A stretch of DNA of 64,000 nt from Mytilus californianus (lineage: Eukaryota), in assembly GCF_021869535.1 (NCBI RefSeq), contig NW_026262581.1:136400001-136464000 (forward strand). The letters are read 5' to 3'. The position numbers and the translations under genes were made by a program. Each line of letters opens with the position of its first letter. The first letter of the stretch is position 1. Shown here piece after piece: positions 10,798 to 53,700 of this stretch. Under the pieces are notes generated by a model. The model worked only from the letters and a program-made list of their open reading frames with translations. It ran no database searches and was not told the origin of the DNA.

Positions 10798-10814
10798 ATT
10801 TATTGTTATCTGAT

Positions 10815-11885
10815 TTTTGTTGAGCCTGCGACTTTTGTAGCAGAAAGCTCTACGTAGGGATAGTGATCCGGCGGCAGCGGCGTCAGATCACTTCTTAAAA
10901 GCTTTATATTTTAGAAGGTGGAAGATTTGGATGCTTCATACTTTGTATATGGATGCCTCATGTTACGAAGTTTCCGTCAATCACATGTCCAATGTCCTTG
11001 ACCTCATTTTCATGGTTCAGTGACAACTTGAAAAAAATTTAAGATTGTTTGTAATGTTAAATTCTCTCTTATTATAAGTAATAGGATAACTATATTTGGT
11101 ATATGCATACCCTGCAAGGTCCTCATGCCTGTCGGACAGTTTTCACTTGACCTTGACCTCATTATATGGATCAGTGAACAAGGTTAAGTTTTGGTATCCA
11201 TATCTCAGATACTATAAGCAATATGTCTGGTATATTCGGTGTATGGAAGGACTGTAAGGTGTACATGTCCAACTGGCAGGTGTCATCTGACCTCGACCTC
11301 ATTTTCATGGTTCAGTGGTTATAGTTAAGTTTTTGTGTTTTGGTCTGTTTTTCTTATACTGTATGCAATAGGTAGAATTTGGTGTATGGAATGATTGTAA
11401 GGTGTACATGTCTAGCTGGCAGGTGTCATCTGACCTTGACCTCTTTCATGGTTCAGTGGTCAAAGTTAAGTTTTTGAATTTTGGTCTTTTTTTCTAATAC
11501 TATATGCAATAGTTCAACTATATTTGGTGTATGGAAATATTTTATGATCTATATGTCAGTCACGCAGGTTTTATTTGACCTTGACCTCATTTTCAAGGTT
11601 CATTGCTCAGTGTTAAGTTTTTGTGTTTTGGTCTGTTTTTCTTAAACTATAAGCAATAGGTCAACTATATTTGTTGTATGGAAGAATTGTTAGCTGTACA
11701 TGCCTGCCTAGCATGGTTCTTCTGACCTTGACCTCATTTTCATGGTTCATTGGTCAATGTTTAGTTTACTTGGTTAATGTTAAGTTTATGTGACAGTTGT
11801 AATAAAGCTTTATATTTAGGACTATCAACATAATATCAATGATTAGTAAAGAAGGCGAGACATTTCAGCGTGTGCACTCTTGTTT
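10815..11885 (+). mobile_element. Non-autonomous Helentron/DINE(pearl)-like element, copy A
   Basis: Starts in a T-run, CGG microsatellite, 6-7 internal tandem units of about 140-147 bp (GACCTTGACCTCATTTTCATGGTTCA), ends GTGTGCACTCTTGTTT; reverse-complement copy at 16625-17693. Confidence 0.7.
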
Positions 11886-12059
11886 AAACAGACATAAATA
11901 GAAATCAAAAATTAAAATAGGGCCCTTATTGCATCTTGTCCTTTGTATTACATTGAATTTGCTTATTCTCTCATCTCTTTTTTGTCTTGCCTGCAAAAAA
12001 AGTTGCAGAATGGGAGACAAGGATTACTATTGGGCAGTGGCAGCTGCAACGTAAACGAT

Positions 12060-13030
12060 TGGTATCAAGCTTTATATTTCAGTAGGTAGAAGACCTGTAT
12101 GCTTCAAACCTTTTTTTTGTCATGTGAATTTCTCATTTATAATGAATAATAGGATAACAATATTTGGTATATGGGTTCTATGGAACATCTACATGTCCGT
12201 CAGACAAAGTTCACCTGACCTCAACCTCATTTCATGGATCAGTGATCAAGATTATTTACATGATTAGGTTCATTTCACAGATACTGTAAGCAGTAGGTCA
12301 ACTATATGTGGTGTATGGAATGATTGTAAAGGGTACATGTCAGTCTGGCAGGTTTAATCTGACCTTGACCTCATTTTCATGGTTCATTGGTCAATGTTAA
12401 GTTTTTGTGTTTGTTTTTTCAAGTATTGTAAGCAATAGGTCAACTACATTTGGTGTATGGAATGATTGTAAGGGGTACATGTCAGTCTGGCAGGTATAAT
12501 TTTACCTTGACCTCAATTTCAAGGTTCATTGTTTTTTGTGTTTTGGTCTGTTTTTCAATTGCCATAAGCAATAGGTTAACTGTATTTGGTATATTGAATA
12601 ATTGTAAGATGTACATGTCTGTCTGACCTTAACCTCATTGCCATGAATATTGAGAATATTTAAAAATGTAAAGTTTATGTGATACTTGTAGTAAAACCTT
12701 TATGTTTAAGACTTCCAAAATAAAATCTATGGTTAGTAAAGCGGTCAATGTAAAGTTTTCATGGTTGGGTCAATTTCATTTCTCAGATACTGTAAGCAAA
12801 AGTTCGACTTTATTTGGTTGTTTGACATATATGTTTGTTTTACCATGTCCTCACTTTCAGTTTATTGGTAAAGGTGGAAACAAAATTTGTGGTTAAATCT
12901 GTTTGTAATATACTATAAGCAAAAGGTCAACTATATTTGGTGGATGGAATGATTGTTAGGTGTACATAGCTGTCTGGCAGGATTCATCTGACCATGACTA
13001 CATTTTCATGGTTCATTGCAATGAGTCAAT
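12060..13030 (+). mobile_element. Degenerate copy of the 10815-11885 family core repeats
   Basis: Repeated GACCTTGACCTCATTTTCATGGTTCA and TTTGGTGTATGGAATGATTGTAAG motifs. Confidence 0.6.
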
Positions 13031-13289
13031 GTTAAGTTTTCATATTTAGTATAAAATAAGGAGATGTGGTATGATTGTCAAAGACCCAACTACCCACCAG
13101 AGACCAAATGACGCAAGTAGCAACTTTAAGTCGCCATACAGCCTTCAACTATGAGCAAAACTTATACAGCACAGCCAGCTATAAAAAGGTCTGTTTCTCT
13201 GATATATTAGCAATATATCAACAACATTTTGGATTACTTTGGTGATCTTCTAAATTCTTGCCTCCAGTGCTTTAGTTCATGGTTACAAT

Positions 13290-13480: not shown

Positions 13481-14833
13481 CAGATTCACTTTACATCGTT
13501 TTATTGCTGTGCTGACTTCTTTTGAAATGTTTGCCACTGGTCATTAAACACCAATCCATCAACAACATCAACTATTTTTGGTGGATAAAATGTGCAAATA
13601 AGGTAAATGCCATATGACATATTCAAGATGGACAAGCTTGACCACAGGTGAATATGAGTGAATGAACAAACTCAATACACATTTTGGTTGTCCTAGTAGG
13701 TGAAAATTGGGATTAAGTATTGAGAATTTTAAATTGTTATTACTATCACCAGAAAAGAAATACCGAAGTCTTGCCTTCTACAACTTATGTTGCATGTGCA
13801 ATTAACAATTATAGCCTGCTTGTGTGGTTCCTATTAAACATCATTTTACCACATCATAAGTTTGATTGTGCAATTGTGGCAAAACCTAAAAGAAAAATCA
13901 GAAATAAAGTTTGAGGTTTACAAACAAAACAACTTAAAAATAATAACAACAAAAAACAAGTTGACTGTAAGCTTATGGTGACTAATGAAATCCTGTTATA
14001 AGATTTCCAACAGTAAATAAATAGTTAATAATGCAATGATTGTGAAAATGCATCACACAATAAAGAATCTTCACATGAACAATGATACTAAATTTCATGG
14101 TGCTCTGATCAGTAATTCCTGAGAAAAATGTCACAAAAGTTTAATATAGGTCACTATTTGTAAGAATATAACGTGTTTGGTATACAGGAAGTTGATGAGT
14201 TGTGAATGTATAAAGGCATCACACCATAGCATGTTCACATGAAGTCTGATAACAAATTTCAGGAAGTTTAGCTTTGTAGTTTATAATAAAAATGAAACAT
14301 AAATTTCATACATGTGGAACTTACCACCTTGTGTGGTGTACAAGTCCAAAACTTTTGTAGTATCATAAGATTTTTTAATCGAGCAATTGTACCAAAGAAA
14401 TAAAAGGAGAATGTTTGAAAATTACACATACAAATAAATTCAAATAACATACACACAAAAAGATCTTTAATGAGAAGATAAATAGAGAAAGAAAATGAAC
14501 AAGAGGCTTCAAAGAGCTTGAATCTCTCACCTTGCAAAAATATGCAATCGTGATATTTATTTTTACCATTACTGCAACCAGTTGTGCTTGCTTATTTGTA
14601 AATCTTGTTTAGTGATATTTTTGTAGATCTCATATTGATGATAATTTAATTTTTACTGTTTACAGTTTATACTTATCAATTAAAGTTTTCGAGAAAATTG
14701 ACAAAATAATAACTAGAGGCTCTCAAGAGCCTGTGTTGCTCACCTGATTCTACTTTGCTTTTGGAAATCATGTAAAAATAGATTAAAATCATAACAGATA
14801 CCCTTATAATGATTGAGGCCAAATTTGGTTTAA

Positions 14834-15302
14834 GGTGTAACACCACTAATTCGGGCCCGGCCAGAAAGCACATACCAGAAAGTAGTACATATTTAACACA
14901 AAATAGTTCCTACGCATGGGTGTAACTTTCAAAATATGTAGAATATTTATGTAATTTTGGTATCAAATGAAAGCTGAATGACTGGTGATCATTGTAGAAC
15001 ACTTTTTGACTTATAATTTTGAATAATAAAAAAATTGCATGAAATTTAAAAAAGAGGGTAATTTTGCCTGTTTGTCAGATCTGGAGTACCTGTTTTGGTA
15101 CATCCGAAGTTCCGGGAACCAGTTCTTTCTTATATGCCATTAAAGGTATGTTGATTTTTTCAGTACAAGGCACCATGAAGTGTTGCTTTGACATGCAATG
15201 ATTGTCACTTTATTTGAACTTAAAACAAAAGAGCTGTGCCTGCTTGAAATTGAAGAATTTAACATAGAAAGCAATGGGGCCATGAATTAGTGGTGTACTT
15301 CC
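14834..15302 (+). repeat. Left long terminal direct repeat (469 bp)
   Basis: GGTGTAACACCACTAATTC ... GAATTAGTGGTGTACTTCC; about 7 substitutions versus 21854-22322 by eye. Confidence 0.9.
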
Positions 15303-16624
15303 TATTACAGAGTATCATCAGAAATTCAATTTTTAGAAGTTGTACCTATTCCAATGAAAAGTGGTCATATTTGATGTCAGTAATCATGTTTAATCAACTT
15401 TTTAGGATGAAAAATTCTGTTTATGGGAAATTTCAGCTCTTAAATAGACACAATAAGGTACTTTAGCCTTTTATGGTCATACAACATGCATGCAGTTAAG
15501 ACTTGACTCCAAGTTCTTATTTTTGCATTATTTGGGATTGAAATCAATGCAACAGGTATATTATGACTTGTTTATGATAAAACAATGGCTCTTGGTCAAA
15601 TAATCTTATGATTTTTCAAGTTTAATTGGTTTTCTTATGGTAGCCTTTTACAATCTAGGCAATTGGTATATACTCATATAAGAATTCAAAAATCTCATTG
15701 TACATGCAATTTTGAACCAGTTTAGCAAGTTATCTAGCTGAGGGATATATAAATTGCTCTTAAAAATCTATGTTGTAGCACAGAAGTATGGTTTATACCA
15801 AAAGTGTCCCTTTACCAATTTGAAGAAAAAAGGGGGGACAATATTCTCAATTATGTCTTAGGTTTGGACTAATATGTTTTTATCAGATGAACAACCACTG
15901 ATAAAAATATAACTATTGGTAAGCACATTGCTTTCATAGTAGAAATTAACAAATAGAACCATGACATTGAGAATAAATCAAAGCGTGAAAGCGCTGTAAA
16001 GGCAGTTAATTACAGGTTGTGTGTATTTTTAGTCCAGTTATATCATTATCTTGCATAGTACATTGTACTTATCAGAGGTGGCTTTCAGTATTTAAGATTT
16101 AGAGTTCTCTAATGATATTGAACAAGTTTTATGAATGTCATATTCTGAGCACTATATGAAGGCGATTGTTCTCACTTGTTTATGAACTAGTGCATTATGT
16201 CCACTTTGTACCTTTTTTTATCTATGTTTATAGTCAAATACTGTTTAAAATAGTTTGGCATTTTCTTTTTAGTAATAAGTAAATGTTATCAACTGTATTT
16301 TATTCAACTTCGCAAATGTGGTTTGTTACTGGTAGGTACAATGTATGGATGATAGTTGTTTCATTGGCAATCATAACACATCTCCTTATTTATATAAAAT
16401 GATCTATATTCAACGACCTCGGGTACAAAAAAAATGTATGTAACTAAACTATGATGGGAAACCTTTGACTTCTTTCTTTTATATAAACTTTTGATTTGGT
16501 ACCATAGAACTATGTAGAATAAATGTACATTGCAACATGTCAACTCTTTCAATGACAATACTTTTTTTAGAAACTATAACTCCAAGCAAAATTATATTTC
16601 CAAGTATAAAGTAATTTATGAATG

Positions 16625-17693
16625 AAACAAGAGTGCACACGCTGAAATGTCTCGCCATCTTTACTAATCATTGATATTATGTTGATAGTCCTTAATATAA
16701 AGCTTCATTACAACTGTCACACAAAATTAGCATTAACCAAGTAAACTAAACATTGACCAATGAACCAAGAAAATGATGTCAAGGTCAGATGAACCATGCT
16801 AGGCAGGCATGTACAGCTAACAATTCTTCCATACAACAAATATAGTTGACCTATTGCTTATAGTTTAAGAAAAACAGACCAAAACACAAAAACTTAAAAC
16901 TGAGCAATGAACCTTGAAAATGAGGTCAAGGTAAAAAAAAAACCTGCGTGACTGACAAATAGATCATAAAATATTTCCATACACCAAATATAGTTGAACT
17001 ATTGCATATAGTATTAGAAAAAAAGACCAAAACTCAAAAACTTAACTTTGACCACTGAACCATGAAAATGAGGTCAAGTCAGATGACACCTGCCAGTTAG
17101 ACATGTACACCTTACAATCATTCCATACACCAAATATAGTAGACCTATTGCATACAGTATAAGAAAAACAGACCAAAACACAAAAACTTAACTATAACCA
17201 CTGAACCATGAAAATGAGGTCAAGGTCAGATTACACCTGCCAGTTGGACAGTCCTTCCATACACCGAATATACTAGACCTATTGCTTATAGTATCTGAGA
17301 TATGGACTTGACCACCAAAACTTAAACTTGTTCACTGATCCATGAAATGAGGTCGAGGTCAAGTGAAAACTGTCTGAAAGGCATGAGGACCTTGCAAGGT
17401 ACGCACATACCAAATATAGTTATCATATTACTTATAATAAGAGAGAATTTAACATTACAAAAAATCTCAACTTTTTTTTCAAGTAGTCACTGAACCATGA
17501 AAATTAGGTCAAGGACATTGGACATGTGACTGACAGAAACTTTGTAACATGAGGCATCCATATACAAAGTATGAAGCATCCAGACCTTCCACCTTCTAAA
17601 ATATAAAGCTTTTAAGAAGTTAGCTAACGCCGCCGCCGGATCACTATCCCTATGTCGAGCTTTCTGCGTTAAAAGTCACAGGCTCAACAAAAA
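16625..17693 (-). mobile_element. Helentron/DINE-like element, copy B (inverted relative to copy A)
   Basis: AAACAAGAGTGCACACGCTGAAATGTCTCGCC ... GCCGCCGCCGGATCACTATCCCT..GGCTCAACAAAA is the reverse complement of 10815-11885. Confidence 0.75.
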
Positions 17694-18239
17694 GGAGTTC
17701 TTAATTAAGAAATAAACTGATTCGCTGAGCGCAGCTGGATACACCTGCAGAGGTTCAACCCTGAACAGTTGGGGCAAAAATGGACACAATATTCAAGCTT
17801 GATACAAGTCTGAATTTGGTTGTAATTAAATATTTCACATATTATAGTTTCTGAATAAATGTAGTCAAAGAACTTGAAATTGGTTATATGAATTGAATTT
17901 ATATTCAATTAAAGATTTCTTGCTGTTGTGCAATACACTGTGCTGTTGCGCAATACTTAATAAATCTGTTGCCAGACTATAAACAAATAAAGTTCAATTT
18001 CTTCTCAATGTCATATTTGAAATTTAGGGAAATCAATAGGGAGATTACATCAATAGCTATAAATAATTCACCAAAGTTTCATGCGAACTGCTTAAAGCAT
18101 TTTTGAGTTGTTGTCCAAAAACTGGAAAATCCCCCCTTTTTTAATGAATAAAACCCCATAACTCAGAAATGTGAAATCTAAAATTTATAAAATTCTAAAG
18201 GGAGCTTACGGATTGATAATTTAGTCTTAGATGCAAGAT

Positions 18240-18790
18240 TTTTTTATCAGTTGTTAGTGGCTTTGAACTAGCTGTCAGTAAATGCGAGTACTCTCAGATC
18301 TGCACTTAGTGTCTTTTTGTTGTTTGGATGTACAACTACCCGGCCACGTCCACTTGTATTTGTATTTATCCATCTGATGAGTTAAGCCTCTTTCAACTGA
18401 TTTTTTATAGATCGTTCTTATATTGTACTGTTACACCACTGTCCCAGGTTAGGGGGTGGGTTGGGATCCTGCTAACATGTTTAACCCCGCCAAATTCTGT
18501 ATGTACACGTATGTGCCTGTCCCAAGTCAGGAGCCTGTAATTCAGTGGTTGTTTGTTGATGTGTTGCATATTTGTTATTTGTTCATTTTTTGTACATAAA
18601 TTAGGCCGTTAGTTTTCTTGTTTGAATTGTTTTACATTGTCATTTCGGGGCCTTTTATAGCTCACTGTGCGGTATGTGCTTTGCTCATTGTTGAAGGCCG
18701 TACTGTGACCTATAGCTGTTAATTTCTGTGTCATTTGGTCTCTTGTGGAGAGTTGTCTCATTGGCAATCATACCACATCTTCTTTTTTAT
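18240..18790. mobile_element. Abundant short interspersed element; fragments also near 5330, 7470, 10360, 13060, 16340, 24290, 25090, 49500 and 60300
   Basis: Shared end GAGAGTTGTCTCATTGGCAATCATACCACATCTTCTT recurs across the window on both strands. Confidence 0.65.
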
Positions 18791-19074
18791 ATTTACATCA
18801 ACAGATAGAAACAATTCACCAAAGTCAAACTTAGTTGTAAGATCTCTGAAATTGTTTACACGGTACAAGTTTTTCTAATTGTTGGAGATTGTACGGTGAC
18901 AGTAACACCTGTAACTGCTTAACCCATTTCTAATGCACTTTGGTTCGATAAACTCACTGAATATCATACCACATCTCCTTATTTTTATATGCATTACAAT
19001 TTACATGTGCATGTAATTGTAAATAATATTTATATATATATATATCAGAACAAACTTCATTGTGTCACTTTTAT

Positions 19075-21079
19075 TTATGCATTCTTTGGCACAATACAAG
19101 TTCTAAAATTACACAACCTAAAACAACTAAATGTTATTTCAGATGAAAGTTTTGTTTCAGTTCCATTCATAGGATTTATTAGAATTTTGTATGTTTTGCC
19201 AAGTCCAATAATTAGCTCTATGTGCACATGTTAATTGGAGACTTTTCTATCCCGTATAAGAGTTTTGGAACTAATTCTGTTTCTTTTTTTGAAAAAAGTG
19301 AGCAAACAAATCTTGCACATTTAAACCTTTGTCTGCCATCACACTGTCACCTGGATCACATAATTGAACTATTCTATCTTTCAACTATTTCACAGTCACT
19401 GGTACAACTAACATATGCATTAGAGACATAGTTGACTAAACCACCAGGTGTCGAACATACAAGTATTTTCAGTGTTTCTGTTTTTATATGATGAAAAGGT
19501 TGCCTGAGCTCTAGGAGCTTTAGGTTTTATCACGGGATATTCTGTGCTGTCAATAATAATCCAAGTTGTAGGAAACTTTAATTTGAAGTTGGATGGCGAA
19601 AAATACCTGACTAAACCACTTAATGGCCAAGTGTTAGCCTCACGCCACTGTTTAGACATAAAAACAATCCATGTTTACACAATATTCTTAACACTAGTTT
19701 CAATCTAGAATCTAGACAGTTCAAAGTTGGTTGTATAATGCCTCAATTTCATCAAAGTCATAAAAAAACTGATTTTCAAATGACACCCTATCAATTTGAA
19801 AATATATGTATCTCAAACAATGTGCTGCTGGACCAAGTGTGGTGAAAACAAATAAAAATTTAGTATACAACTCTAAACCGGTATAAAATTGCATGGCTGT
19901 GTCACGTGTCTTCATTTCAAAATTCTCTGCTGAAAATATAGGCATTGATGGTGTTTGCGTAATTCCATCTGTGAAGCTCAACATTAGCTCGGCAGTTGGT
20001 GGTGGACAGTCATAAATCCTGTCTGCAGTATGAATGACTTCTTCAGGAAAACCAACTTTACAATCAAAACTTTCCTCTAGATTTCTACTACAATATTCAT
20101 CAAGTTTAGTTCTTTTGTTTTCACAGGAAACTGCCCTGATTTTTCTTTTTGCGGACGATTCAGTCTCTTGCTTAATCCAGGAAAATAGGCTGGGAATGGC
20201 AGTAGACCTTAGTCTCTGTATGGTGGGTTTGCGCCCTGAAAAAGGTTATAAAACATTAGTTTTTTGATAATTAAATGAACTTCCATTAGCAATGCAAAAT
20301 ATTAACTAGATTTATTCATTACAATCTGGATAAAACTATGTTAGCCTGAATTAATGTACATCAAAATGTATGTTATGTAAATCCAAAGTAAGTAAGTAAG
20401 TAAAACTTTATTTTGATTTGGCATATTGACAAACATACAAAAATAAGCTCTAATGAGGACAAACAATGAGAGATGTATACAACAAACATACATTGTTTGT
20501 ACCTAAACAACTATAATATAGATGAGAGCATGTCATTATTTTGTTCCTGTTAACATTGTCACTGATATTTTTCAAGAAAGTCTATGAGGCAAAGCTTATG
20601 CATTCCTGTCATTACTACATTAGCATAATTACTGCTAAAATAATTCTCAGTATGATATACCTCTTGTAAGAAATCATTATAATTGTAGCAAGCACCAAAA
20701 AATCTCAAACAGATCACATTGAATCGTAATCCAAAAAATTATGACGTCTTGAATTAACCACCCCCTTTTATTCTAAAACGATAATTGCGGTTGTAAACAA
20801 ACTTTGGTTTATTCGCATGGCGATTACATATATAACTATATATTTTAAAAAGAAAATAGAGTTTTACCATGAATAGTTTCCTGCACGTAGTCTTTTTCAG
20901 TAAAATGTGCCTTGCAAACAACAGCTGATTGAGATGGACTCCACGATTTCATCGTATTCTCGTCCAATCTGCGTATGGGCCATTGCGTTGATCCAACTTT
21001 TCCTTCTTTTTAAGTCATTTGGAAATGCATGTCCTCCTCTTAAATGACATCCAGGTACACAACAACATGTACTTGGCAT
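19075..21079 (-). pseudogene. Decayed THAP + DDE_Tnp_4 (PIF/Harbinger/ISL2EU-type) transposase
   Basis: THAP: MPSTCCCVPGC..W..VCKAHF, then an apparent intron, then AIPS box; catalytic IIDSTE, TFSSYKNRNT, DSVMADKG, HVHIELIIGLGKTYKIL; several frameshifts and stops. Confidence 0.85.
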
Positions 21080-21853
21080 CGTTAATTAATAATGCAACTG
21101 TAATAGTTGCACAGTGCAGAAACCGGAAGTTGAAGAACAGGATCGGCTACCACGGCGCCACCTATTCAGGAACGATAATTTGCTACTTTATATAACCGCG
21201 AAATAACAATTACGTTAGACGGGTTCGCGTGCATAAACAGAAATGCGCTTTAAATTGTATAATATAATTCATGTTCAGTCGACCTTTAATTATTATATCA
21301 ACGACTGAAATGATTTATAAACATCTAGATTGCAGATAACACTCGAAATTAACCCGACCTCTTTCCACACGGAATTCAAATAATTCTAGTTTGTCAATCG
21401 GTTGACTGCTTATAATGTAAAATACAAATATATCAAAAGTTTTTAAAACTAACAAAACACAATGATCGTTTCTCTATTTCCCAATGTAAATGAAATGAAA
21501 CAAAAAACATTTTATATCACAATAAGAAGAGGAGAGAATCAACATTTTCCGGATCTACTTGGAGCCTAATGACCCCCCACGTAGATAAGTTGGATATCGC
21601 GGAAAGAAAGATTAACACGGCAACTAGAAAGGCATTAAAGCACTGCCTTTAAAAAATCAAATTGGCCATTGGTAATATCCATATGCAGTTTCCTTTGCAT
21701 ATAACCCATATGTTACTACTTGTCCAATTTGAGCTTAAAATCAGTAAAATAGTGTTTGGAATAAAGCTTTGTTTGTATTTTATTGCTTGAAATAGATCAT
21801 AAAATGAAATAAAGTAATGCTGAAGTCAATATAGCAAGTTTGGTTCTGTTATA

Positions 21854-22322
21854 GGTGTAACACCACTAATTCGGGCCCGGCCAGAAAGCACATACCAGAA
21901 GGTAGTACATATTTAACACAAAATAGTTCCTACGCATGGGTGTAACTTTCAAAATATGTAGAATATTTATGTAATTTTGGTATCAAATGAAAGCTGAATG
22001 ACTGGTGATCATTGTAGAACACTTTTTGACTTATAATTTTGAATAATAAAAAAATTGCATGAAATTTAAAAAAGAGAGTAATTTTGCCTGTTTGTCAGAT
22101 CTGGAGTACCTGTTTTGGTAAATCGGAAGTTCCGGGAACCAGTTCTTTCTTATATGCCACTAAAGGTATGTTGATTTTTTCAGTACAAAGCACCATGAAG
22201 TGTTGCTTTGACATGCAATGATTGTCACTTTATTTGAACTTAAAACAAAAGAGCTGTGCCTGCTTGAAATTGAGGAATTTAACATAGAAAGCAATGGGGC
22301 CATGAATTAGTGGTGTACTTCC
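21854..22322 (+). repeat. Right long terminal direct repeat (469 bp)
   Basis: Near-identical to 14834-15302 and followed directly by TTAA. Confidence 0.9.
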
Positions 22323-22339
22323 TTAATATTGGCTCCGTA

Positions 22340-23670
22340 ATTTATTAAAAAATCCTGGTGGCCATCTTGAACAGTAAATCGGCAACAAAGTAGCAACACT
22401 TCATGCACCTCATAAGGAACATTTATGCCATGTTTGGTTTCATTCCATTCAGTGCTCCTCTAGAAGAATCATTTCTATGTATTTCCCATAGGGTCGTATG
22501 TTAAACTAAGTCCCCTGCTGGCGGTTATCTTGGATGATGGTTCGGCTACAAAGTAACAACATTTGGTCAGCACCTCATTAGGAACATTCATGCCATGTTT
22601 GGTTTCATTCTATTCAGTGGTTCTGTAGAAGAAAACATTTGTATGTATTTCCCATAGGGTCCTAATATTGTTAAACTTACTCCTCCTGCTGGCAGCCATC
22701 TTGGATGACAAATCAGCTACAAAGTAACAACACGTGTACAGCACCTCTAAAGAAACATTCATAAAATGTTTGGTTTCAATCCATTCAGTGGTTTTCTAGA
22801 AGACATTTGTATATATTTCCCATAGGGTCCTTTGTTAAACTAAGTCCCCCGTTAGCAGCCATCTTGGTTGATGGATTTGTTACAAAGTAACAACATTTGG
22901 TCAGCACCTCATAAGGAACATTCATGCCATGTTATATTTCATTCCATTCAGTGGTTCTTCAAAAGAAGACTTTTGCATGTATTTCACAAAGGGTCCTTTG
23001 TTAAACTAAGTTCCCCGCTGGCAGCCACCTTGGATGATTGATTGGTTACAAAGTAACAACACTTGGTCAGCACCTCATTAGAACATTCATGCCATGTTTA
23101 GTTTCATTCCATTCAGTGGTTCTCTAAAAGAAGACATGTGTATGTATTGTCCATAGGGTCCTTTGTTCAACTAAGTTCCCCGCTGGCAGCCATCTTGGAT
23201 GATTTATTGGCTACAAAGTAACAACACTTGGTCAGCACCTCTAAAGAAACATTCATACCATGTTTGGTTTCATTCCATTCAGTGGTTCTCTAAAAGAAGA
23301 CATTTGTATGTATTGTCAATAGGGTCCTATGTTAAACAAAGACCCCCGCTGGAAGCCATCTTGGATGATGGATCGCCTATAAAGTTACAACACTTGGTCA
23401 GCACCTCATAAGGAACATTCATACCATGTTTTATTTCTTTCCATTCAGTGGTTCTCTAAAAGAAGACATTTGTATGTATTTCCCATAGGGTCCTAAGTTA
23501 AACTAAGTCCCTCTCTGGCGGCCATCTTGGATGATGGATCCGCTTCAAAGTAACAACACTTGGTCAGCACCTCATAACGAACATTCATGCCATGTTTGGT
23601 TTCATTCCATTCAGTGGTTCTCTAAAAGAAGACATTTGTATGTATTGTCTTCGTGCCAGGGGAGCTAAAA
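22340..23670 (+). repeat. About 8 tandem units of about 165 bp, satellite-like core of a pearl/Helentron-type element
   Basis: CAGCACCTC recurs at 22568, 22739, 22902, 23068, 23233, 23399, 23565; ends GGGGAGCTAAAAAT. Confidence 0.75.
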
Positions 23671-24430
23671 ATGAATAAATCTTACTTTGCTGAACATCTT
23701 TAACAGTTACAATTTCTCTCTATTACAGTTGTTGCTAAAAATGCTTAAATGGGTAAAAACAATCTTTCTATGGCAATAACTCGTATATGGGGTCAATTGA
23801 AGATTTTGATTTAATTGTAGGTCCTACATGTATTTTGCTGAAAGTCTTTGCTATTTACAGTTTTTCGCCATCTATTATGGTTTCTGCAAAAATCTCTTTC
23901 AAGGGCAATTACTCCTATTAGAGGTCAATTATCAATTTTGGCCATGTTGATTTACTTGTAGATATTTTTTTTTCTGGAATATTTTAACAATTTACAGTTT
24001 CTCACTATCTATTATGGTTTCTGCAAAAATTAGTAAAAATCAAGACAAGAAACTCCTCCTTAAGAGCTGGACAGACCTTTTGTGAGTTCACTTACAGCTT
24101 TAGATCTTTTGGTTTTCTGTTTCATTGCGTTACGGTCTCTTGGATGTATACCACACATCTCCTTGAATTAAAAAGCACTTCAAATGAAATCATAAATTTC
24201 AAAGTAATTCACAGCCATTGCCATCACTGTCATCTGGACTGAAGTATCATCTCTAAAAAATACCTTTATGTGCTAACATCTACATCATGTGGTCTTTGGT
24301 GGACAGTTGTTTCATTGGCAATCATACCACATCACCTTATCTTATAATAAAAATATGTCAAATAATTCTTCATGGCTGTGTTCATATTAAAAACATTAAA
24401 ATCATAAACTTTTCTAACTGTCTAGAAACA

Positions 24431-24935
24431 AAAATCTTAGCTGGCTCCCAAATCACTTTCCATTAAATATAGAAAATCTTAGCTGTCTCCCAAATAACTA
24501 TCCATTAAATATAGAAAATCTTAGCTGGCTCCCAAATTACTATCCATTAAATATAGAAAATCTTAGCTGGCTCTCAAATAACTACCCATTAACTATAAAA
24601 AATCTTAGCTGGCTCCCGAATATCTATCCATTAAACATAGAAAATCTTAGCTGGCTCCCAAATAACTATCCATTAAATATAAAAAATCTTAGCTGGCTCC
24701 CAAATAACTATCCATTAAATATAGAAAATCTTAGCTGGCTCCCAAATAACTATCCATTAAATAGAAAAATCTTAGCTGGCTCCCAAATAACTATCCATTA
24801 AATATAGAACTCTTAACGGGCTCCCAAATAACTATCCATTAAATATAGAACTCTTAACTGGCTCTCAAATAACTATCCATTAAATATAGAACTCTTAACT
24901 GGCTCTCAAATAACTATCCAATAAACATAGAACTA
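24431..24935 (+). repeat. 42-bp minisatellite, about 12 copies
   Basis: Unit AAAATCTTAGCTGGCTCCCAAATAACTATCCATTAAATATAG. Confidence 0.9.
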
Positions 24936-25548: not shown

Positions 25549-28500
25549 TTACGTTGACTCCTTTGTTTGACTGGTAGCCTCATGATGATTATCAATACTA
25601 TTCTCTGAATCACTTCCAAATAGTTTGTATTTAAGATCCATTCTCCAGCGAATACCTGCTACTTTCATTCTGTCATAGAATGCTCCAAATGAATCCAAGG
25701 CTGGACGAACATCCAGTAATGTAAACTGATAGTTTTCTTGTACTTTTCCACCATCGTAATAATCAATGATATATCTCACTTCTTTACCACATCTATCTAC
25801 TATCCAATCGTGGCGGTCAAATGGCAGATCGTATCTACAATTATAAATTTATTCCATTGAACAAATTGTATATAATGAGCATTCCATTCCTACCAAGTAC
25901 TAGAATGTGTGAAGTCTAAGTTGTATTTGGTTCCTGAATTTAAGTAAAAGGCTTTTTGGAATGGTACGGTATGTCCTGTGAGGTGTGGTCCATTTTGGAA
26001 AAGACACTGACAATTCATTATTAACTTTTACTTTCACTTTCATTTTAACGTCGTCAAATCAAAAACTTTTACTTTCACTTTCACTTTAACGTCATCAAAT
26101 CAATTATTGTGACGTTACGTCTTGTTAACCTTTGTAACCCCATATGCACCGCATTTTATGTACTTCAGTATTTGTTTTCTATGTTTAAATTGTCCTGAAG
26201 ACGCCACCGTAAGTGGCGAAACATGTAGACCATAATAAAGGTTTTCCTTGCAGTAATCTACGATGTTGTTGTCTTTGTGTAGCATTATTTAATTGAACTT
26301 TGAGTTAAAGATCTCTCTTACTTGGTATCTACATTCAATATCAATAGGAATAGAAAAGGATTGATAGGTTGAAGATCTCTCTTACTTGGTATCTACATAC
26401 AATATCAATAGGAATAGAAAAGGATTGATTGGTTAAAGATCTCTCTTACTTGGTATCTACATCCATTATCAATAGGAGTAGAAAAGGATTGATTGGTTAA
26501 AGATCTCTCTTACTTGGTTTCTACATACAATATCAATAGGAATAGAAAAGGATTACAGCAAGGCTAAGACAGTCCCTTATGTCAACTATAGAAATATTAC
26601 ACCTTACAGCAAGGCTATGACAGCCCCTAATGTCAACTTATAGAAATATTACACCTTACAGCAAGGCTATGACAGCCCCTAATGTCAATTTATAGAAATA
26701 TTACACCTTACAGCAAGGCTATGACAGCCCCTAATGTCAATTTATAGAAATATTACACCTTACAGCAAGGCTAAGACAGTCCCTAATGTCAACTTATAGA
26801 AATATTACACCTTACAGCAAGGCTAAGACATTCCCTAATGTCAACTTATAGAAATATTACACCTTACAGCAAGGCTAAAACAGTCCCTAATGTCAACTAT
26901 AGAAAAATTACACCTTACAGCAAGGCTAAGACAGTCCCTAATGTCAACTTTAGAAATATTACACCTTACAGCAAGGCTTAAACAGTCCCTAATGTCAACT
27001 TATAGAAATATTACATCTTACAGCAAGGCTAAGACAGTCCCTAATGTCAACTATAGAAATATTACACCTTACAGCAAGGCTAAGACAGTCCCTAATGTCA
27101 ACTTATAGAAATATTACATCTTACAGCAAGGCTAAGAGACTAAGACAGTCCCTAATGTCAACTATAGAAATATTACACCTTACAGCAAGGCTAAGACAGC
27201 CCCTAATGTCAACTTATAGAAATATTACACCTTACCACAAGGCTAAGACAGCCCTTAATGTTACATTAGCCAATTTGAACTTAATGAAATAAAAGAACAG
27301 AGTTCCAATGTCCCCTGTGTTGCACATATTTTATCTATCCAAGGTACAAGGGCAATAACAAAAAAAAGCACTCTTTTTTTTGTTCTTTAAAACTTTTTAT
27401 TAATATCTGAAGAGAAATGAAGGCTTCAGAGCAAATGCAATGTGATTTCCATTATAATTTATATTTCCAAGGGGCAAACTCGTTAAAAATAATTGACCAG
27501 AGTGTCAAAGACATTGCTGATATAAACCTATGATATAAGTTTCATAAAATTCTGGCAAGAATTGTACATATGAGAGCGCTAACGATGCAATTTTCCATAA
27601 AATTAATGTTTCCGAGGGGCAATACTCTTAAAAATAATTGATTGGCACTGATTTTCAAATTCCTCCAAGACATTGCTAATATAAACCTCTGATATAAGTT
27701 TCATAAATTCTGGCAAGAATTGTACACATGAGAGCACTAACGATGCAATTTTCCATAAAATTAATGTGTCCAAGGAGCATAACTCTTTTAAAAATAATTG
27801 ATTGGCACTGATTTTCGAACTCGTCTAAGACGTTGCTGATATAAACCTATGATATAAGTTTCATAAAAATCTGGCAAGAATTGTACACATGAGAGCGCTA
27901 ACAAGACTGGACGGACAGACGGACAGATGGACGCCCGGTATTTCCATGTCCCCGTGCAATGCGTTACGCAGGGGACAATTAGGCACACAAAGGAAACAAT
28001 TGAAGAAAATTTGGTGAGTCCATTTCAGCGACAGATTTAGGAAGCGTTGATTCTAAAAAAAAGAAACCACGGTATATGAATAGGCTGACATCCAACAATG
28101 GTTTAACATTAATCAATTAATCATACTTCCTTCAATCCGTTTTTTGTAAAAAGAGGTTTGACTGCCAACCTAAATTTGTTCATTTTTTACGATATTAGAT
28201 GTGATAAAATCCTCTTCCATTTCAACATCCACTTCAGTTTGAAGTTCAGTCTAAGAATTAAAATCTCCTTGCTGAAAGGGATGTTTTACTTGTGAAATTG
28301 GACCTACAGTAAGTAGTTTATGTAGTTTGAGTATATCAGCAATTGTTACAATAATTAAATAATTCTTAATAAAACTAGAGGCTCTAAAGAGCCTGTGTCG
28401 CTCAACTTGGTCTATATGCATATACAACAAATGACACTCTCCAACATTGTAGACGAGAATAGAATTCATGACAAAAACCTCTGTTTTGTTGATCTTGTAT

Positions 28501-31500: not shown

Positions 31501-34500
31501 AAGTAATCTCTAGAATATGAGATGACTATTTATGTTAATGTGTACTGTTTAGTGACTATTTATGTTAATGTGTACTGTTTAGTGACTATTTTTGTTAATG
31601 TGTACTGTTTAGTGACTATTTTTGTTAATGTGTACTGTTTGGTTTCTGTATCACTGCCAGATGTTTACCACACAGCTCCTCATTCATAATACCAAATCTG
31701 ATTTTAATGATGCACAGCTTTACTAGTGATATTACAATCTACCTTGCATGAAATGCCTCCCATTTTAACACTTCCTGCCAGGCCTGTTCATTGTTGGCAT
31801 TGTGTATTTGTATAATGTGATTCATGTCTTCTGCTGCGACATCTTCTTCCTTCCATCGCCAACCTGCAACATCAAGTCTTTAAAATGATAACAAAGAATA
31901 AGAATTCTTATATACTTGTTACAATATTTGAATGATTATTTTCAAATAGTATATAAATCTGTTTCATTCAACTAATTTTTGTATTTATAACCCAATAACT
32001 TCAGGTTAATGTAGAGGTGTTGTGAGTAAAGACCACAATTTGATACCCCCATGACTTGGTATAAAGGGAAACCCCAAAAATAATTAAAATAATAATACTA
32101 CAGTAAATTCCCAAATTATTGCCAGCACTTATTATTGCGATTTTTTAACAATGGACACAAATGAGAGATTAATTATTGCCATTTCATGAAAATGTTCATA
32201 CAGATAATATATCCTATATCAGAATGGTAGTTCTTATTTTTGCGAAACTCACTTCTGAATTTACAGTTTTAAAAGGTGAAGATTCTGAAAAATTTCATCA
32301 ACATAGGAATAGGGATTTAGGAGGAAAAAAATGAAATAAATGTGTTTTGTAGTAAGCAGATGATAATGCTGAAGGAAATCACAAAAATGATTCTGATCAA
32401 AAACAAAATAGGAAGTATAACAGCATTATGGTGACTAAGATTGTGAGAAAAATTAATAAATTGTAATTAGGGGTTTAGGAGCAATTGCTGATACAAATAT
32501 GGGACAGGACAAAGGAACAAATTTAGGGACAGGACAAAGGAACAAATGTGGGACAGGACAAAGGAACAAATGTGGGACAGGAAAAAGGAACAAATGTACG
32601 GAGAGGAGAAAGGCACAAATGTGGGACAGGACAAAGGAACAAATGTGGGACAGGACAAAGGAACAAATGTGGGACAGGACAAAGGAACAAATGTAGGATA
32701 GGACAAAGGAACAAATGTAGGGACAGGACAAAGGAACAAATGTGGGACAGGACAAAGGAACAAATGTAGGGACAGGACAAAAGAACAAATGTAGGGTCTG
32801 GACAAAGGAACAAATGTGGGACAAGACAAAGGAACAAATGTAGGGACAGGACAAAGGAACAAATGTGGGACAAGACAAAGGAACAAATGTAGAGACAGAC
32901 GCCCTCATCACCTTCATCAGGAATGCTAAATACCAAAACTGTGAAGGTTTAGAATGTAAATACTTGATGAGCTACATGACCAAAATCAACAATAAAATAG
33001 CCAACATATCTAACATAAATCTTGAAGAGCTGATACAATTGAAAAGGACCAAAAGTATAACCGAACACACATAACAAATCAGATTGTGGCATGAGGAAGA
33101 TACATTCCTTAATTTGAAAGGATTTCATTAGTTTTATCACTTCTAATTTCATAAAACAAACTACAATTTGAGTCTTGCTAAAAATATTATAGCTTGGCAG
33201 GTTTTGAATTGTCAGTTTTATTTACTAGCTGTCATCGTCTCTCTGGAATGCTTTATCTTTAAAATTAGAATGATACCTTTGCTTACAGAATCAGTAATAT
33301 TTATATCAAAGGCTATTAGAGATTGACTTTGAAAAGTAAAGATAATAGTTATAGAATCATTCTTACACAAATTTATATCTTATGTCTATAAAGTATACAC
33401 CATTTTCACAGCCCCCAAACTGATGACTATATATTCTTTACCATGGACTTTTTTTTTGGAATTTTGTGTGCATAAAAAACTGGTTTAACCCAACTACAGT
33501 TTGTGCCTGTACCAAGTCAGGTTATCTAAGACTATATGTTGTTCATTGTTGTTTGACATGGCTTGGGAGGTGTTGAGTAATAGTGGTTTATGTGATCTGT
33601 TTGTACTATCCAATACTTTTGGTGATTCCTGTTACCAATTTATGTATTCCTCTGTTCACATCTCTAAATCTTACCTTTCCTAAGCATAGCATTCAAGAAC
33701 ATTTGCTGTGAAGGATACACCCAGTTTTCCTCTGTTCACATTTCTTATCTTACCTTTCCTAAGCATAGCATTCAAGAACAATTGCTGTGAAGGATACACC
33801 CACTTTTCCTCTGTTCACATTTCTTATCTTACCTTTCCTAAGCATAGCATTCAAGAACAATTGCTGTGAAGGATACACCCACTTTTCCTCTGTTCACATT
33901 TCTTATCTTACCTTTCCTAAGCATGGCATTCAAGAACATTTGCTGTGAAGGATACACCCACTTTTCCTCTGTTCACATTTCTTATCTTACCTTTCCTAAG
34001 CATGACATCCAAGAACATTTGCTGTGAAGTATACACCCACTTTTCCTCTGTTCACATTTCTGATCTTACCTTTCCTAAGCATGGCATTCAAGAACATTTG
34101 CTGTGAAGGATACACCCACTTTTCCTCTGTTCACATTTCTTATCTTACCTTTCCTAAGCATGACATCCAAGAACATTTGCTGTGAAGTATACACCCACTT
34201 TTCCTCTGTTCACATTTCTGATCTTACCTTTCCTAAGCATGGCATTCAAGAACATTTGCTGTGAAGGAAACACCCACTATTCCTCTGTTCACATTTCTTA
34301 TCTTACCTTTCCTAAGCATAGCATTCAAGAACATTTGCTGTGAAGGATACACCCAGTTTTCCTCTGTTCACATTTCTTATCTTACCTTTCCTAAGCATAG
34401 CATTCAAGAACAATTGCTGTGAAGGATACACCCACTTTTCCTCTGTTCACATTTCTTATCTTACCTTTCCTAAGCATGACATTCAAGAACATTTGCTGTG

Positions 34501-37500
34501 AAGTATACACCCACTTTTCCTCTGTTCACATTTCTGATCTTACCTTTCCTAAGCATGGCATTCAAGAACATTTGCTGTGAAGGATACACCCACTTTTCCT
34601 CTGTTCACATTTCTTATCTTACCTTTCCTAAGCATGACATTCAAGAACATTTGCTGTGAAGTATACACCCACTTTTCCTCTGTTCACATTTCTGATCTTA
34701 CCTTTCCTAAGCATGGCATTCAAGAACATTTGCTGTGAAGGAAACACCCACTATTCCTCTGTTCACATTTCTTATCTTACCTTTCCTAAGCATAGCATTC
34801 AAGAACATTTGCTGTGAAGGATACACCCAGTTTTCCTCTGTTCACATTTCTTATCTTACCTTTCTAAGCATGGCATTCCAGAACATTTGCTGTGAAGGAT
34901 ACACCCACTTTTCCTCTGCTCACATTTCTTATCTTACCTTTCCTAAGCATGACATTCCAGAACATTTGCTGTGAAGAATACACCCACTTTTCCTCTGTTC
35001 ACATTACTTATCTTACCTTTTCTAAGCATGGCATTCCAGAACATTTGCTGTGAATGATACACCCACTTTTCCTCTGTTCACATTTCTTATCTTACCTTTC
35101 CTAAGCATGGCATTCCAGAACATTTGCTGTGAAGGATACACCCACTTTTCCTCTGTTCACATTTCTTATCTTACCTTTCCTAAGCATGGCATTCCAGAAC
35201 ATTTGCTGTGAAGGATAAACCCACTTTTCCTCTGTTCACATTTCTTATCTTACCTTTCCTAAGCATGGCATTCCAGAACATTTGCTGTGAAGGATAAACC
35301 CACTTTTCCTCTGTTCACATTTCTTATCTTACCTTTCCTAAGCATGGCATTCCAGAACATTTGCTGTGAAGGATAAACCCACTTTTCCTCTGTTCACATT
35401 TCTTATCTTACCTTTCCTAAGCATGGCATTCCAGAACATTTGCTGTGAAGGATAAACCCACTTTTCCTCTGTTCACATTTCTTATCTTACCTTTCCTAAG
35501 CATGGCATTCCAGAACATTTGCTGTGAAGGATAAACCCACTTTTCCTCTGTTCACATTTCTTATCTTACCTTTCCTAAGCATGGCATTCCAGAACATTTG
35601 CTGTGAAGGATAAACCCACTTTTCCTCTGTTCACATTTCTTATCTTACCTTTCCTAAGCATGGCATTCCAGAACATTTGCTGTGAAGGATAAACCCACTT
35701 TTCCTCTGTTCACATTTCTTATCTTACCTTTCCTAAGCATGGCATTCCAGAACATTTGCTGTGAAGGATAAACCCACTTTTCCTCTGTTCACATTTCTTA
35801 TCTTACCTTTCCTAAGCATGGCATTCCAGAACATTTGCTGTGAAGGATACACCCACTTTTCCTCTGTTCACATTTCTTATCTTACCTTTCCTAAGCATGG
35901 CATTCCAGAACATTTGCTGTGAAGGATAAACCCAATTCTCATCTGTTCCTGCTTTTGGTATATTTGATATAACTCTGTTTGTAGCTAAAGGAAATGGCTG
36001 ATCAGGTGATGGTCTCTGGTTTGGTGGTGGCATCTGCAATTATTTTAAGTCAGTACTTATTTCATGACAGTTTTTTATACTTCATTCCAGACATTATCTA
36101 CTTTTTAAAATCATTCTGCCACTCAAAATATTTGGAAAACTCTAAAATGATGAAATGTTTTAGGTCTTTTACATCTTACATACATTTAAAGTTCTGACAG
36201 TGTACTTTCGTTGTCAATTTGTTTTTTCTCACTGAATCATACTAAGTATGGACATAGCAATTACCAAACGAGAAATTCAAAGCCGATTATAAGTAGTGTA
36301 CAGATAGAAATTGCTGTCAGACAACAGCAGTTTAAATATTCATGTGCATGTATATATTTAAGAAATGATTATTTCATGCCTTGCTCTATGCTCATTTTAA
36401 CATGGGTAGGCATTATATTTGTCAATATCTTTATACCGAGTGTTAGCGAGGTGTAAAATGTTGACAAATATAATGCCTACCCATGTTAAAATGAGCATAA
36501 AGCATGGCATGATAGAATCATTTCGATTTCTAATAGGAAAATTTGGAAATTTTGTACTGCGAAGAGGAACTATAATTCACGTTCGAAAGGCAGCCATTTT
36601 GATTTGATGATGCCAAAACATTATAGAAAAACAACCGTTTCACGATTAAAAAAAAACCAGATACATGTAAAGTTACTTTTAGAATGATTTTATTTAATTT
36701 CCTAGCAAGCAACACCAACAAAAATGTCTATTTTGATCTCCGACGTTGTTCAAAATACAACTGACGTTGCAATTTCAATTTTGACGTCAATCACGTGCAG
36801 CCCATGTTCTATTGGAATTAGAACATGGCTTTGTTTCCAAAGCAAAAGAAGAACGTCATATTAGAATGTACAACAAGTAGTTGTGTATGCAAACCACAAA
36901 TAAATATTTTAAACCTATATCGATTAAATTTGTATAATTACTTACTTGATTACTGAACAAATTTTTTAAATCTCACTTTCGACAAATTTGTATCATCGTT
37001 TGTTTAAGCTCCCATGTTTTGACGACTTTCACTTTTGCTTATATTCAGAATGCTTATATTCTGTTAGAGTCCATGGTTCAATGACGTTACTTACACAGAA
37101 TGACCTTGGGTCACTCATTTATAAAAAGCATATGAAGGGGAAGTATGATTGGAACAGTCCAAACAAATCATAACGTTACCGATCAGCTAACATACAATAT
37201 ATTTGAATTTGACCATGTCACAGGTGTGTACTCAAAGCATTACCATGTCACAGGTGTGTACGCAAAGCATTTGAAGAATGTCCTATTAAACCATTTATCA
37301 GCATGAGTGTGTTCTTACATCAGAAGGTTATAAAACAGATTAATATGTGATTTTTTCCATATCATCCCAGTTATCATCCCCCGACCCATATCAGACCTTC
37401 TGCTTTCGCCTGGGTCTGATAACCTGATCAATATTGAAAAAGTAATGTATTAATCTGTATATTCACATGAAAATAAAGAAATGACTCTTTCCATATAAGT

Positions 37501-50700: not shown

Positions 50701-53700
50701 GTCTAAACCAAACATATTTTGTTTCTCAAGTCCAATAAATTGTCTACATATTTTAATTTGTAAACAGCACACTGTTTTTGTTTTAGTTATATAGCAGAGA
50801 ACAAGAACCTAGAAGTTATCAACATGAGCATGTGTCAAGGAATCACTGTAAATGGTCTTATGCCTATATGTAACAACTGTACAAGGTAGGTTATCTCCCA
50901 TGTAACAGCTGTACAAGGTAGGTTATCTCCAATTGTTCATGTTTTTACTGTCTCAACATGTAATACATGTATGAGGTGAAATAGAAAACTTTGTCATTAC
51001 AAGACCATATGTAATGTTATAATGTTACTGTCGTTATACATAATAACTGTACAAGGGAGAGATATCTCTATTTGTCTACAACATGATCATGGTTATAAAG
51101 CATTTACAGTATTTCTGGTATTTTTGATGGGTTTTTACAACCATTGGGTCAATGTCACGGCCAGTAGATGGTCACTGAGGTATCACGAGCCCAGTAATCA
51201 GCACTTGTGTGCTAACATGAAATGTCATATTGTAAAGTTACTGTTTATAAAATGTTCAAATTATTCCACACTAAGGTTTTCTTCCCAAGGCAAGGATAGG
51301 CATACCAAATTTGGACAAGTTTTGGGAATTTTTGGTTTTCAATGCTACAAAACTTAATTGATTTTTGATATGTCAGGATAGTCTCTCTGTATTTACTGTA
51401 CAAGTTGAGTAATCTCCCTTTGTCCACAACATATCTATAGATATACAGTATAACTGTCTCTTTATGTAATAATTGTTCAAGATGGATTTTTACCTTTGTC
51501 TAAAAAATGACTTTGACCGTTCTTTTATATTGCAAATCTCAAAGAATCAATGTTATCAAGGATATTACAGTCTATATGTACAAACGATATTACAGTCTAT
51601 ATGTACAAACGATATAACAGTCTATATGTACAAACTATATAACAGTCTATATGTAAAACTATAGTACAGTCTATATGTACAAACTATAGTACAGTCTATA
51701 CGTACAAACTATATTACAGTCTATATGTACAAACTATATTACAGTCTATATATGTACAAAGTATAGTACAGTCTATATGTACAAACTATCGTACAGTCTA
51801 TATGTACAAACTATATTACAGTCTATATATGTACAAACTATAGTACAGTCTATATGTACAAACTATAGTACAGTCTACATGTACAAACTATAGTACAGTC
51901 TATATATGTAAAAAGTATAGTACAGTCTATATGTACAAACTATAGTACAGTCTATATGTACAAACTATATTACAGTCTATATGTACAAACTATGTTACAG
52001 TCTATACGTACAAACTATATTACAGTCTATATGTACAAACTTTAGTACAGTCTATATGTACAAACTATATTACTCTATATATGTACAAACTATAGTACAG
52101 TCTATATGTACAAACTATATTGCAGTCTATATGTACAAACTATAGTACAGTCTATACGTACAAGTACAGTCTATATATGTACAAACTATAGTACAGTCTA
52201 TATATGTACAAACTATAGTACAGTCTATATGTACAAACTATAGTACAGTCTATATTTACAAACTATAGTACAGTCTATACGTACAAGTACAGTCTATATA
52301 TGTACAAACTATAGTACAGTCTATATATGTATAAACTATAGTACAGTCTATATATGTACAAACTATAGTACAGTCTATATGTACAAACTATAGTACAGTC
52401 TATATGTACAAACTATAGTACAGTCTATATGTACAAACTATAGTACAGTCTATATGTACAAACTATATTACAGTCTATACGTACAAGTACAGTCTATATA
52501 TGTACAAACTATAGTACAGTCTATATATGTATAAACTATAGTACAGTCTATATATGTATAAACTATAGTACAGTCTATATATGTACAAACTATAGTACAG
52601 TCTATATGTACAAACTATTGTACAGTCTATATGTACAAACTATATTACTCTATATATGTACAAACTATTATACAGTCTATATGTACAAACTATATTACAG
52701 TCTATATGTACAAACTATAGTACAGTCTATATGTACAAACTATATTACTCTATATATGTACAAACTATAGTACAGTCTATATGTACAAACTATAGTACAG
52801 TCTATATGTACAAACTATATTACAGTCTATATGTACAAACTATAGGACAGTCTATATGTACAAACTATAGGACAGTCTATATGTACAAACTATAGTACAG
52901 TCTATATGTACATACTATAGTACAGTCTATACGTACAAACTATGTTACAGTCTATACGTACAAACTATAGGACAGTCTATATGTACAAACTATAGTACAG
53001 TCTATATGTACAAACTATAGTACAGTCTATATATGTACAAACTATAGTACAGTCTATATGTACATACTATAGTACAGTCTATACGTACAAACTATGTTAC
53101 AGTCTATATATGTACAAACTATAGTACAGTCTATATATGTACAAACTATAGTACAGTCTATATGTACATACTATAGTACAGTCTATACGTACAAACTATG
53201 TTACAGTCTATATACGTACAAACTATAGTACAGTCTATATGTACAAACTATGTTACAGTCTATACGTACAAACTATAGTACAGTCTATACGTACAAACTA
53301 TATTACAGTCTATATATGTACAAACTATGTTACAGTCTATACGTACAAACTATAGTACAGTCTATACGTACAAACTATGTTACAGTCTATACGTACAAAC
53401 TATAGGACAGTCTATATGTACAAACTATAGTACAGTCTATATGTACAAACTATAGTACAGTCTATATATGTACAAACTATAGTACAGTCTATATGTACAT
53501 ACTATAGTACAGTCTATACGTACAAACTATGTTACAGTCTATACGTACAAACTATAGGACAGTCTATATGTACAAACTATAGTACAGTCTATATGTACAA
53601 ACTATAGTACAGTCTATATATGTACAAACTATAGTACAGTCTATATGTACATACTATAGTACAGTCTATACGTACAAACTATGTTACAGTCTATATATGT

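Follow-up and report, generated by a model that had tools for sequence, protein, structure and literature searches.

A pair of long terminal direct repeats (LTDRs) that encloses several kilobases of DNA, with TTAA on its outer flanks, raises the question of whether everything between them moved as a single transposon. Such a locus lies in a 64,000-nt stretch of Mytilus californianus DNA (GCF_021869535.1, contig NW_026262581.1, positions 136,400,001-136,464,000, forward strand), the whole of which we call the window. An earlier note on this DNA read the locus as a 7.5-kb composite that moved as one unit, a non-autonomous or cargo-carrying derivative with KolobokP-like ends. Based on comparison with the genome (label G000; 1.65 Gb, 175 contigs; L and C numbers are locus and contig labels within it), we consider a different history highly probable: a gene-less KolobokP monomer of 1.81 kb inserted with duplication of TTAA, and its interior was interrupted, likely later, by a separate 5.68-kb element, likely of the rolling-circle type. 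Counts given below for the ends of elements are genome-wide pattern counts, each accompanied by a control pattern (0 matches). The parts of the outer element and its target are as follows.

Begins near 14700 on the left, 22327-23650 on the right, no strand assigned: host repeat that the KolobokP insertion divides, with 166-bp tandem units at 22378-23646
14830-14833, plus strand: left target site duplication TTAA, from paralogous empty sites
14834-15302, plus strand: left LTDR of a non-autonomous KolobokP, 469 bp, with GG..CC ends and an imperfect 19-bp terminal inverted repeat (TIR) containing a 13-bp core; 84% identical to the LTDR of an intact element
15303-15977, plus strand: first 675 bp of the ~875-bp non-coding KolobokP interior, from its match to uninterrupted interiors
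15978-21652, minus strand: nested element of 5.68 kb whose ends are Helentron-type, in an A/T run; each boundary uncertain by ~2 bp
21653-21853, plus strand: remaining ~200 bp of the KolobokP interior, from the same match
21854-22322, plus strand: right LTDR, 469 bp, from pairwise comparison with the left LTDR
22323-22326, plus strand: right target site duplication TTAA, from paralogous empty sites

The descriptive core of the earlier note was accurate. The LTDRs, each 469 bp, differ by seven substitutions and no gaps (98.5% identity), each has GG..CC ends and, spanning positions 7-19 counted inward from either end, the TIR core ACACCACTAATTC, and TTAA occurs on the outer flanks only, with TATT (left) and TATA (right) on the inner side. 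Related sequences are abundant: the first 24 LTDR bases have 627 genome matches with no more than one mismatch (control, 0), and there are 40 scored genome matches to the LTDR at 95%-100% identity. Among 30 LTDR loci fetched, 10 uninterrupted copies have LTDR pairs spaced ~1344 bp apart and interiors of 869-877 bp, and all 10 interiors align end to end and gap-free to window positions 15303-15977 and then 21651-21853, with 90%-94% identity to the joined halves. Because these ~875-bp interiors match both interior parts of the window without a gap, the family unit is a gene-less monomer of ~1.81 kb, made up of an LTDR, an interior of ~875 bp, and a second LTDR. The LTDRs of the window copy are 97% identical to the best others and 98.5% to each other, compared with 90%-94% for its interior, a difference that fits either homogenization of LTDRs or a small subfamily.

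The outer TTAA of the window is a true target site duplication. Copies of the host repeat that lack the insertion (the best 24 of 39 non-self matches) join the two flanks via one 4-mer in 24 of 24 cases (22 TTAA, one TTTA, and one TTAT), and it is this crossing through a single 4-mer that identifies the duplication. The same evidence bears on a case that the earlier note had also considered, in which each LTDR arrived as a solo, independently of the other, and older sequence lies between them. Solo LTDRs are indeed common (12 among the LTDR matches examined), but the direct joining of the outer flanks at all 24 empty paralogous sites refutes independent insertion, what stands at the inner flanks is not a duplication but the family's conserved interior tips, and we give this alternative essentially no credence. 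A search for solo LTDRs and for other LTDR-interior-LTDR copies, which the note had proposed, yielded those 12 solos and five other free-standing monomers. A 4-bp duplication, on the outer side only, flanks 5/5 of these monomers (TAAT, TTTA, ATAA, TTAA, and TACA) and 11/12 of the solos. Thus 16 of 17 other insertions have a 4-bp duplication and just three have TTAA, so TTAA is not diagnostic for this KolobokP family. Members of the non-autonomous family also occur as a multimer at C132:60461000-60481000 (L139, L140), with shared LTDRs, two interior-interior joints that lack an LTDR, and a ~1-kb insertion repeated at interior position ~310.

The family to which the ends belong can be judged from gene content and layout. 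As the note had reported, neither a Kolobok transposase nor a His-Me nuclease is encoded in the window interior: the intact KolobokP proteins of this genome, used as tblastn queries, matched nothing there at E<=1. A search of the genome for the His-Me nuclease gave 150 matches, and among 70 regions tested (30 loci from the nuclease search and 40 more that had been fetched, including one LTDR locus), the LTDR of five arrays or copies is 83.5%-85% identical to that of the window. Locus L185 holds an intact 4189-bp unit with a 682-aa transposase (PF20700, E 1.6e-45) and a nuclease (PF05551, E 2.7e-13) on opposite strands; its LTDR is 84% identical to the window LTDR, and the two elements agree in TIR core and in the outermost 8 bases at either end of the interior. 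On these grounds, we assign the window ends to a non-autonomous KolobokP, in agreement with the note. Nuclease-bearing KolobokP units also form tandem arrays in this genome, at C154:57.87-57.95 Mb (L186; ~24 units at 3.69-kb spacing), C88:39.61-39.68 Mb (L187; ~20 units at 3.2-3.7 kb), and C154:49.95-50.0 Mb (11 units at 4.08 kb); L186 and L187 carry an LTDR family related to that of the window.

What, then, is the DNA that separates the two parts of the interior? Its features, all on the minus strand, are listed here.

21628-21651, minus strand: 5' end, with a subterminal inverted repeat at 21642-21651 and a 7-bp internal inverted repeat at 21628-21634; a T run precedes
18751-21195, minus strand: ISL2EU-derived segment, the transposase half, with the YqaJ gene and far terminus lost; 76%-80% identical to L285/L288
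19078-21079, minus strand: THAP-HTH-DDE_Tnp_4 transposase pseudogene in two exons (21079-20860 and ~20240-19078), with ~5 frameshifts and 3 stops
16625-17692, minus strand: second-level insertion in an A run, a repeat of ~1.07 kb whose 146-bp tandem units span 16743-17244
15982-16006, minus strand: 3' end, with a 10-bp subterminal inverted repeat at 15997-16006 followed by a GC-rich hairpin at 15982-15995, whose stem is 5 bp in most copies and has one mismatch here

The 5.68-kb element is an independent high-copy family. Three parts of it each have 40 scored genome matches at 98%-100% identity, the pattern for its 3' end is matched 611 times (control, 0), and both ends were present, 5.1-7.1 kb apart, in 15 of 18 fetched regions. 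Continuation into KolobokP sequence was seen at 0/29 other 5' ends and 0/29 other 3' ends, and each pattern spanning an inner/outer junction matches the window alone, genome-wide, with up to 2 and 3 mismatches allowed. Because both junctions occur once in the genome, there is no evidence that the 7.5 kb moved as a unit. The proposal that the region moved as one piece therefore survives in part: it stands for LTDR-interior-LTDR, which has a single outer duplication, and is not supported for the 7.5 kb, since the unit is 1.81 kb and the junctions are single-copy. Nor is a cargo-carrying 7.5-kb derivative supported, the extra 5.68 kb being an independent element, and a check for other copies with the same long interior found only interiors of ~875 bp.

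Even so, the inner element could have entered a KolobokP monomer elsewhere, after which the loaded 7.5-kb composite jumped here once by cut-and-paste and left no donor. The KolobokP ends would then have acted as a cargo-carrying composite, much like a bacterial IS pair, with a 5.7-kb passenger. The outer ends, TIR cores, and TTAA duplication are intact, a donor need not remain after cut-and-paste, and the ages estimated from divergence overlap, all of which such a jump would accommodate. We nevertheless regard it as unlikely: both junctions are single-copy, every other interior seen is ~875 bp, and an element that has placed ~600 copies in T runs could hit a monomer already in residence without any extra step. 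Sizes published for oyster KolobokP, in the part of that report available (PMC9587614), are 4.0-4.7 kb for autonomous and 1.7-3.3 kb for non-autonomous elements. A demonstrated move of the loaded 7.5-kb unit would show directly that foreign cargo can be carried by KolobokP ends, of which the available part of PMC9587614 contains no demonstration. Insertion of the inner element in place is favored because the junctions are single-copy and ~600 inner-element copies are dispersed in the genome.

The ends of the inner element suggest how it moves. Read on the minus strand, it starts, after five T, with a 10-bp subterminal inverted repeat (subTIR) and a 7-bp inverted repeat, and at the other end it has the second 10-bp subTIR, a GC-rich hairpin, and a few bases, followed by TT. 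The five T precede 29/29 other 5' ends, TT follows 28/29 other 3' ends, the 3' stem-loop has a 5-bp GC-rich stem and a 4-base loop in most of 30 ends, and the perfect subTIR is 10 bp from the youngest copies to one of ~88% identity. No target duplication was found outside A runs in 15 inner-element copies. At the window locus, the empty site is a run of seven A (five monomers) and the filled site has 3 + 6 = 9 A; the two extra A fit terminal T's of the element, which are reported to vary in Helentron elements in the available part of PMC4067079, or alternatively a 2-bp AA duplication. From this end structure, we consider transposition by a rolling-circle (Helentron-type) mechanism likely. Several Rep/helicase loci in the genome have open frames of 2100-2700 aa and are candidate intact Helitron-like elements.

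The inner element also contains a gene that the earlier note missed, a broken THAP and DDE_Tnp_4 gene at 21079-19078 on the minus strand. A less broken stretch from another copy of this cargo is above the Pfam cut-off (E 2e-15) and, used as a query, found 244 relatives among 268 candidates; identity of the cargo DDE stretch to the relatives listed is 58%-73%, and many of these are bivalve. The named homologs with the best scores to the genome's transposases are likewise mostly bivalve. Other weak Pfam matches on short window frames (E>0.009) were below the cut-off and were taken as chance.

The presence of a full-length-like THAP-HTH-DDE gene, 10-bp inverted repeats near the ends, and a possible 2-bp AA duplication could mean that the inner element is an ISL2EU-like cut-and-paste transposon in its own right, mobilized by its own THAP-DDE transposase. 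However, its inverted repeats lie subterminally, a hairpin is present at the 3' end, and there is no A/AT/T site, whereas intact ISL2EU relatives in the genome are ~4.15 kb long with AAT..ATT ends, ~70-bp TIRs, and YqaJ. The ISL2EU homology ends at 18751 and 21195, far inside the inner-element ends; L285 and L288, which are ~80% identical to the cargo, match the window within these limits only, and Helentron-type ends are absent from the 9.9 kb fetched for them. YqaJ is absent from the window and from the searched copies with Helentron-type ends, its remnants occurring in L285 and L288 alone, and a search for ISL2EU-type TIRs around the cargo gave chance-length matches only. Finally, the gene is broken in 24/24 copies read, the transposase open reading frame never exceeds 179 aa in 16 copies, and the excess of third-position changes is absent. 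An origin of the inner element as a self-moving ISL2EU transposon is thus very improbable, and we return to the Helentron-type reading. A young 4.15-kb ISL2EU family (L267, L272, L277, and L278), whose members are 93%-99% alike, includes copies with open transposase and YqaJ frames.

Codon positions provide a further constraint on the history of the cargo gene. Divergence at positions 1/2/3 is 8.6/7.3/9.3% between young and old Helentron-ended copies, 2.8/3.7/3.7% between young and middle-aged copies, and 13.4/12.3/19.5% against two free ISL2EU-like copies (L285, L288), as counted over 1084 phased columns in pairs that share ancestry, so that the counts are not independent. The pattern indicates a gene selected while it was an ISL2EU transposase and neutral as cargo ever since. 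That the carried DDE gene is functional was ruled out by its breaks and the flat codon-position divergence. Copies with Helentron-type ends fall at 85%-90%, 93%-96%, and 97%-99% identity, and quite probably a rolling-circle family has, in several waves, spread a dead gene for a cut-and-paste transposase to hundreds of copies. One subfamily (L132-L134, L136, and L137) has an extra foldback-type element of ~1.1 kb, with 17-bp subrepeats, in the transposase intron.

The 1.07-kb repeat at the second level of nesting is present in the youngest inner-element copies and absent from five middle-aged copies checked, and the joint that skips it is also seen in contigs from public sequencing runs. Another copy lies at window positions 10814-11899. 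Related repeats with 142-147-bp units cluster at 10814-13040, one of them inverted and 92% identical to 16614-17693.

Nesting geometry gives the order of events in two series, one leading from the host repeat to the monomer and the other from the ISL2EU half through the 146-bp-unit repeat to the inner element. The KolobokP monomer inserted into the host repeat with its 4-bp TTAA duplication, probably with an intact KolobokP transposase of this genome acting in trans, the nearest LTDR found being 84% identical with the same TIR core and interior tips. Separately, a Helentron-type element would early on have picked up half of an ISL2EU element, and presumably went on copying this dead cargo in three or more waves while gaining further insertions. 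The 146-bp-unit repeat then entered the inner element, and the inner element, presumably moved by a putative Helentron Rep/helicase, entered the KolobokP interior at a T run.

Several observations weigh against parts of this account. Beyond the tips, the interior of L185 has no sequence in common with the KolobokP interior of the window, and L185 may for this reason be a sister family rather than the actual helper. LTDR pair divergence is 1.5% and the inner element is 1.2%-1.6% diverged from its seven nearest full copies; because these values overlap, divergence leaves the two insertions unordered. LTDR divergence is also no clock, because LTDR pairs in other monomers range from 97.5% to 99.6% identity and a DNA element may start out with LTDRs that already differ. 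The 10-bp subTIR is slightly shorter than the 11-13 bp given in the available parts of the Helentron/HINE papers (PMC4067079, PMC7492417), and an AA duplication at the filled site would not suit a Helentron. No autonomous Helentron with the inner element's ends was found within 10 kb downstream of 40 of the 90 Helitron_like_N (PF14214) matches, for which reason the rolling-circle mechanism rests on end structure. Among the Logan contigs listed for six public runs (searched with 13900-21853 and 21560-22420), none bridged a locus-specific junction; because other repeat copies swamp these contigs, they provide nothing for or against polymorphism.

The apparent 7.5-kb size is therefore not that of the KolobokP family, and the locus is ordinary nesting of known element types. 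Its value lies in two repeat families that look undescribed and in a clean nest of four levels, from which the order of their activity can be dated. Because hundreds of THAP/DDE_Tnp_4 fragments in this genome are one dead gene copied by another element, counting them as ISL2EU activity or annotating them as host genes would be an error. Elsewhere in the window are tandem arrays at 24350-24930 (42-bp unit), 26490-27320 (52 bp), 32450-32910 (24 bp), 33520-36100 (79 bp), 51560-60000 (25/27 bp), and 60350-61460 (91 bp).

Comparison with known systems, drawn from the available parts of the papers cited, places each layer of the nest. KolobokP as published (Kojima and Bao 2022, PMC9587614) has an LTDR-interior-LTDR layout with direct LTDRs of ~450 or 660 bp, short imperfect TIRs, RR..YY ends, and a 3-5-bp duplication outside the unit only. 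The window copy belongs to the ~450-bp class and also shares a 4-bp outer duplication with weak target preference, an interior ending in TATA, and, in its family, solos, multimers, and interior-interior joints. The published DDE transposase and opposite-strand His-Me nuclease are matched here by L185, and non-autonomous families that lack both genes belong to the published lineage; the window copy differs in being interrupted by a 5.68-kb insertion. Its LTDR family gave chance matches only (nine short words) in the available supplements of PMC9587614, where sequences are line-broken and a miss is not proof, and the LTDR starts of several mussel KolobokP families there differ from those of the window. 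The inner element resembles HINE, DINE-1, Cg_HINE, and HLE2 (PMC4067079, PMC7492417, PMC11417382) in its 5' subTIR with a nearby inverted repeat, the stem-loop after its 3' subTIR, its T-run targets, its apparently variable terminal T's, and its capture of broken gene fragments. It differs in being longer (5-7 kb) than those short satellite-bearing elements, in its 10-bp subTIR, and in a cargo that is half of a DDE transposon. ISL2EU, in the PHIS group, is defined by a THAP + HTH + DDE_Tnp_4 transposase, YqaJ as second gene, and an A/AT/T target (Han et al. 2015, PMC4482050); the cargo has the same transposase architecture, as a dead transposase half that lacks YqaJ, the TIR pair, and the AT duplication. 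We found no paper in the open-access literature on a Helentron carrying ISL2EU sequence, which does not imply absence from print. Both window families, unmatched to published entries, look like undescribed members of known element types, and KolobokP, its non-autonomous derivatives, bivalve HINEs, Helentron gene-fragment capture, and ISL2EU are all already published.

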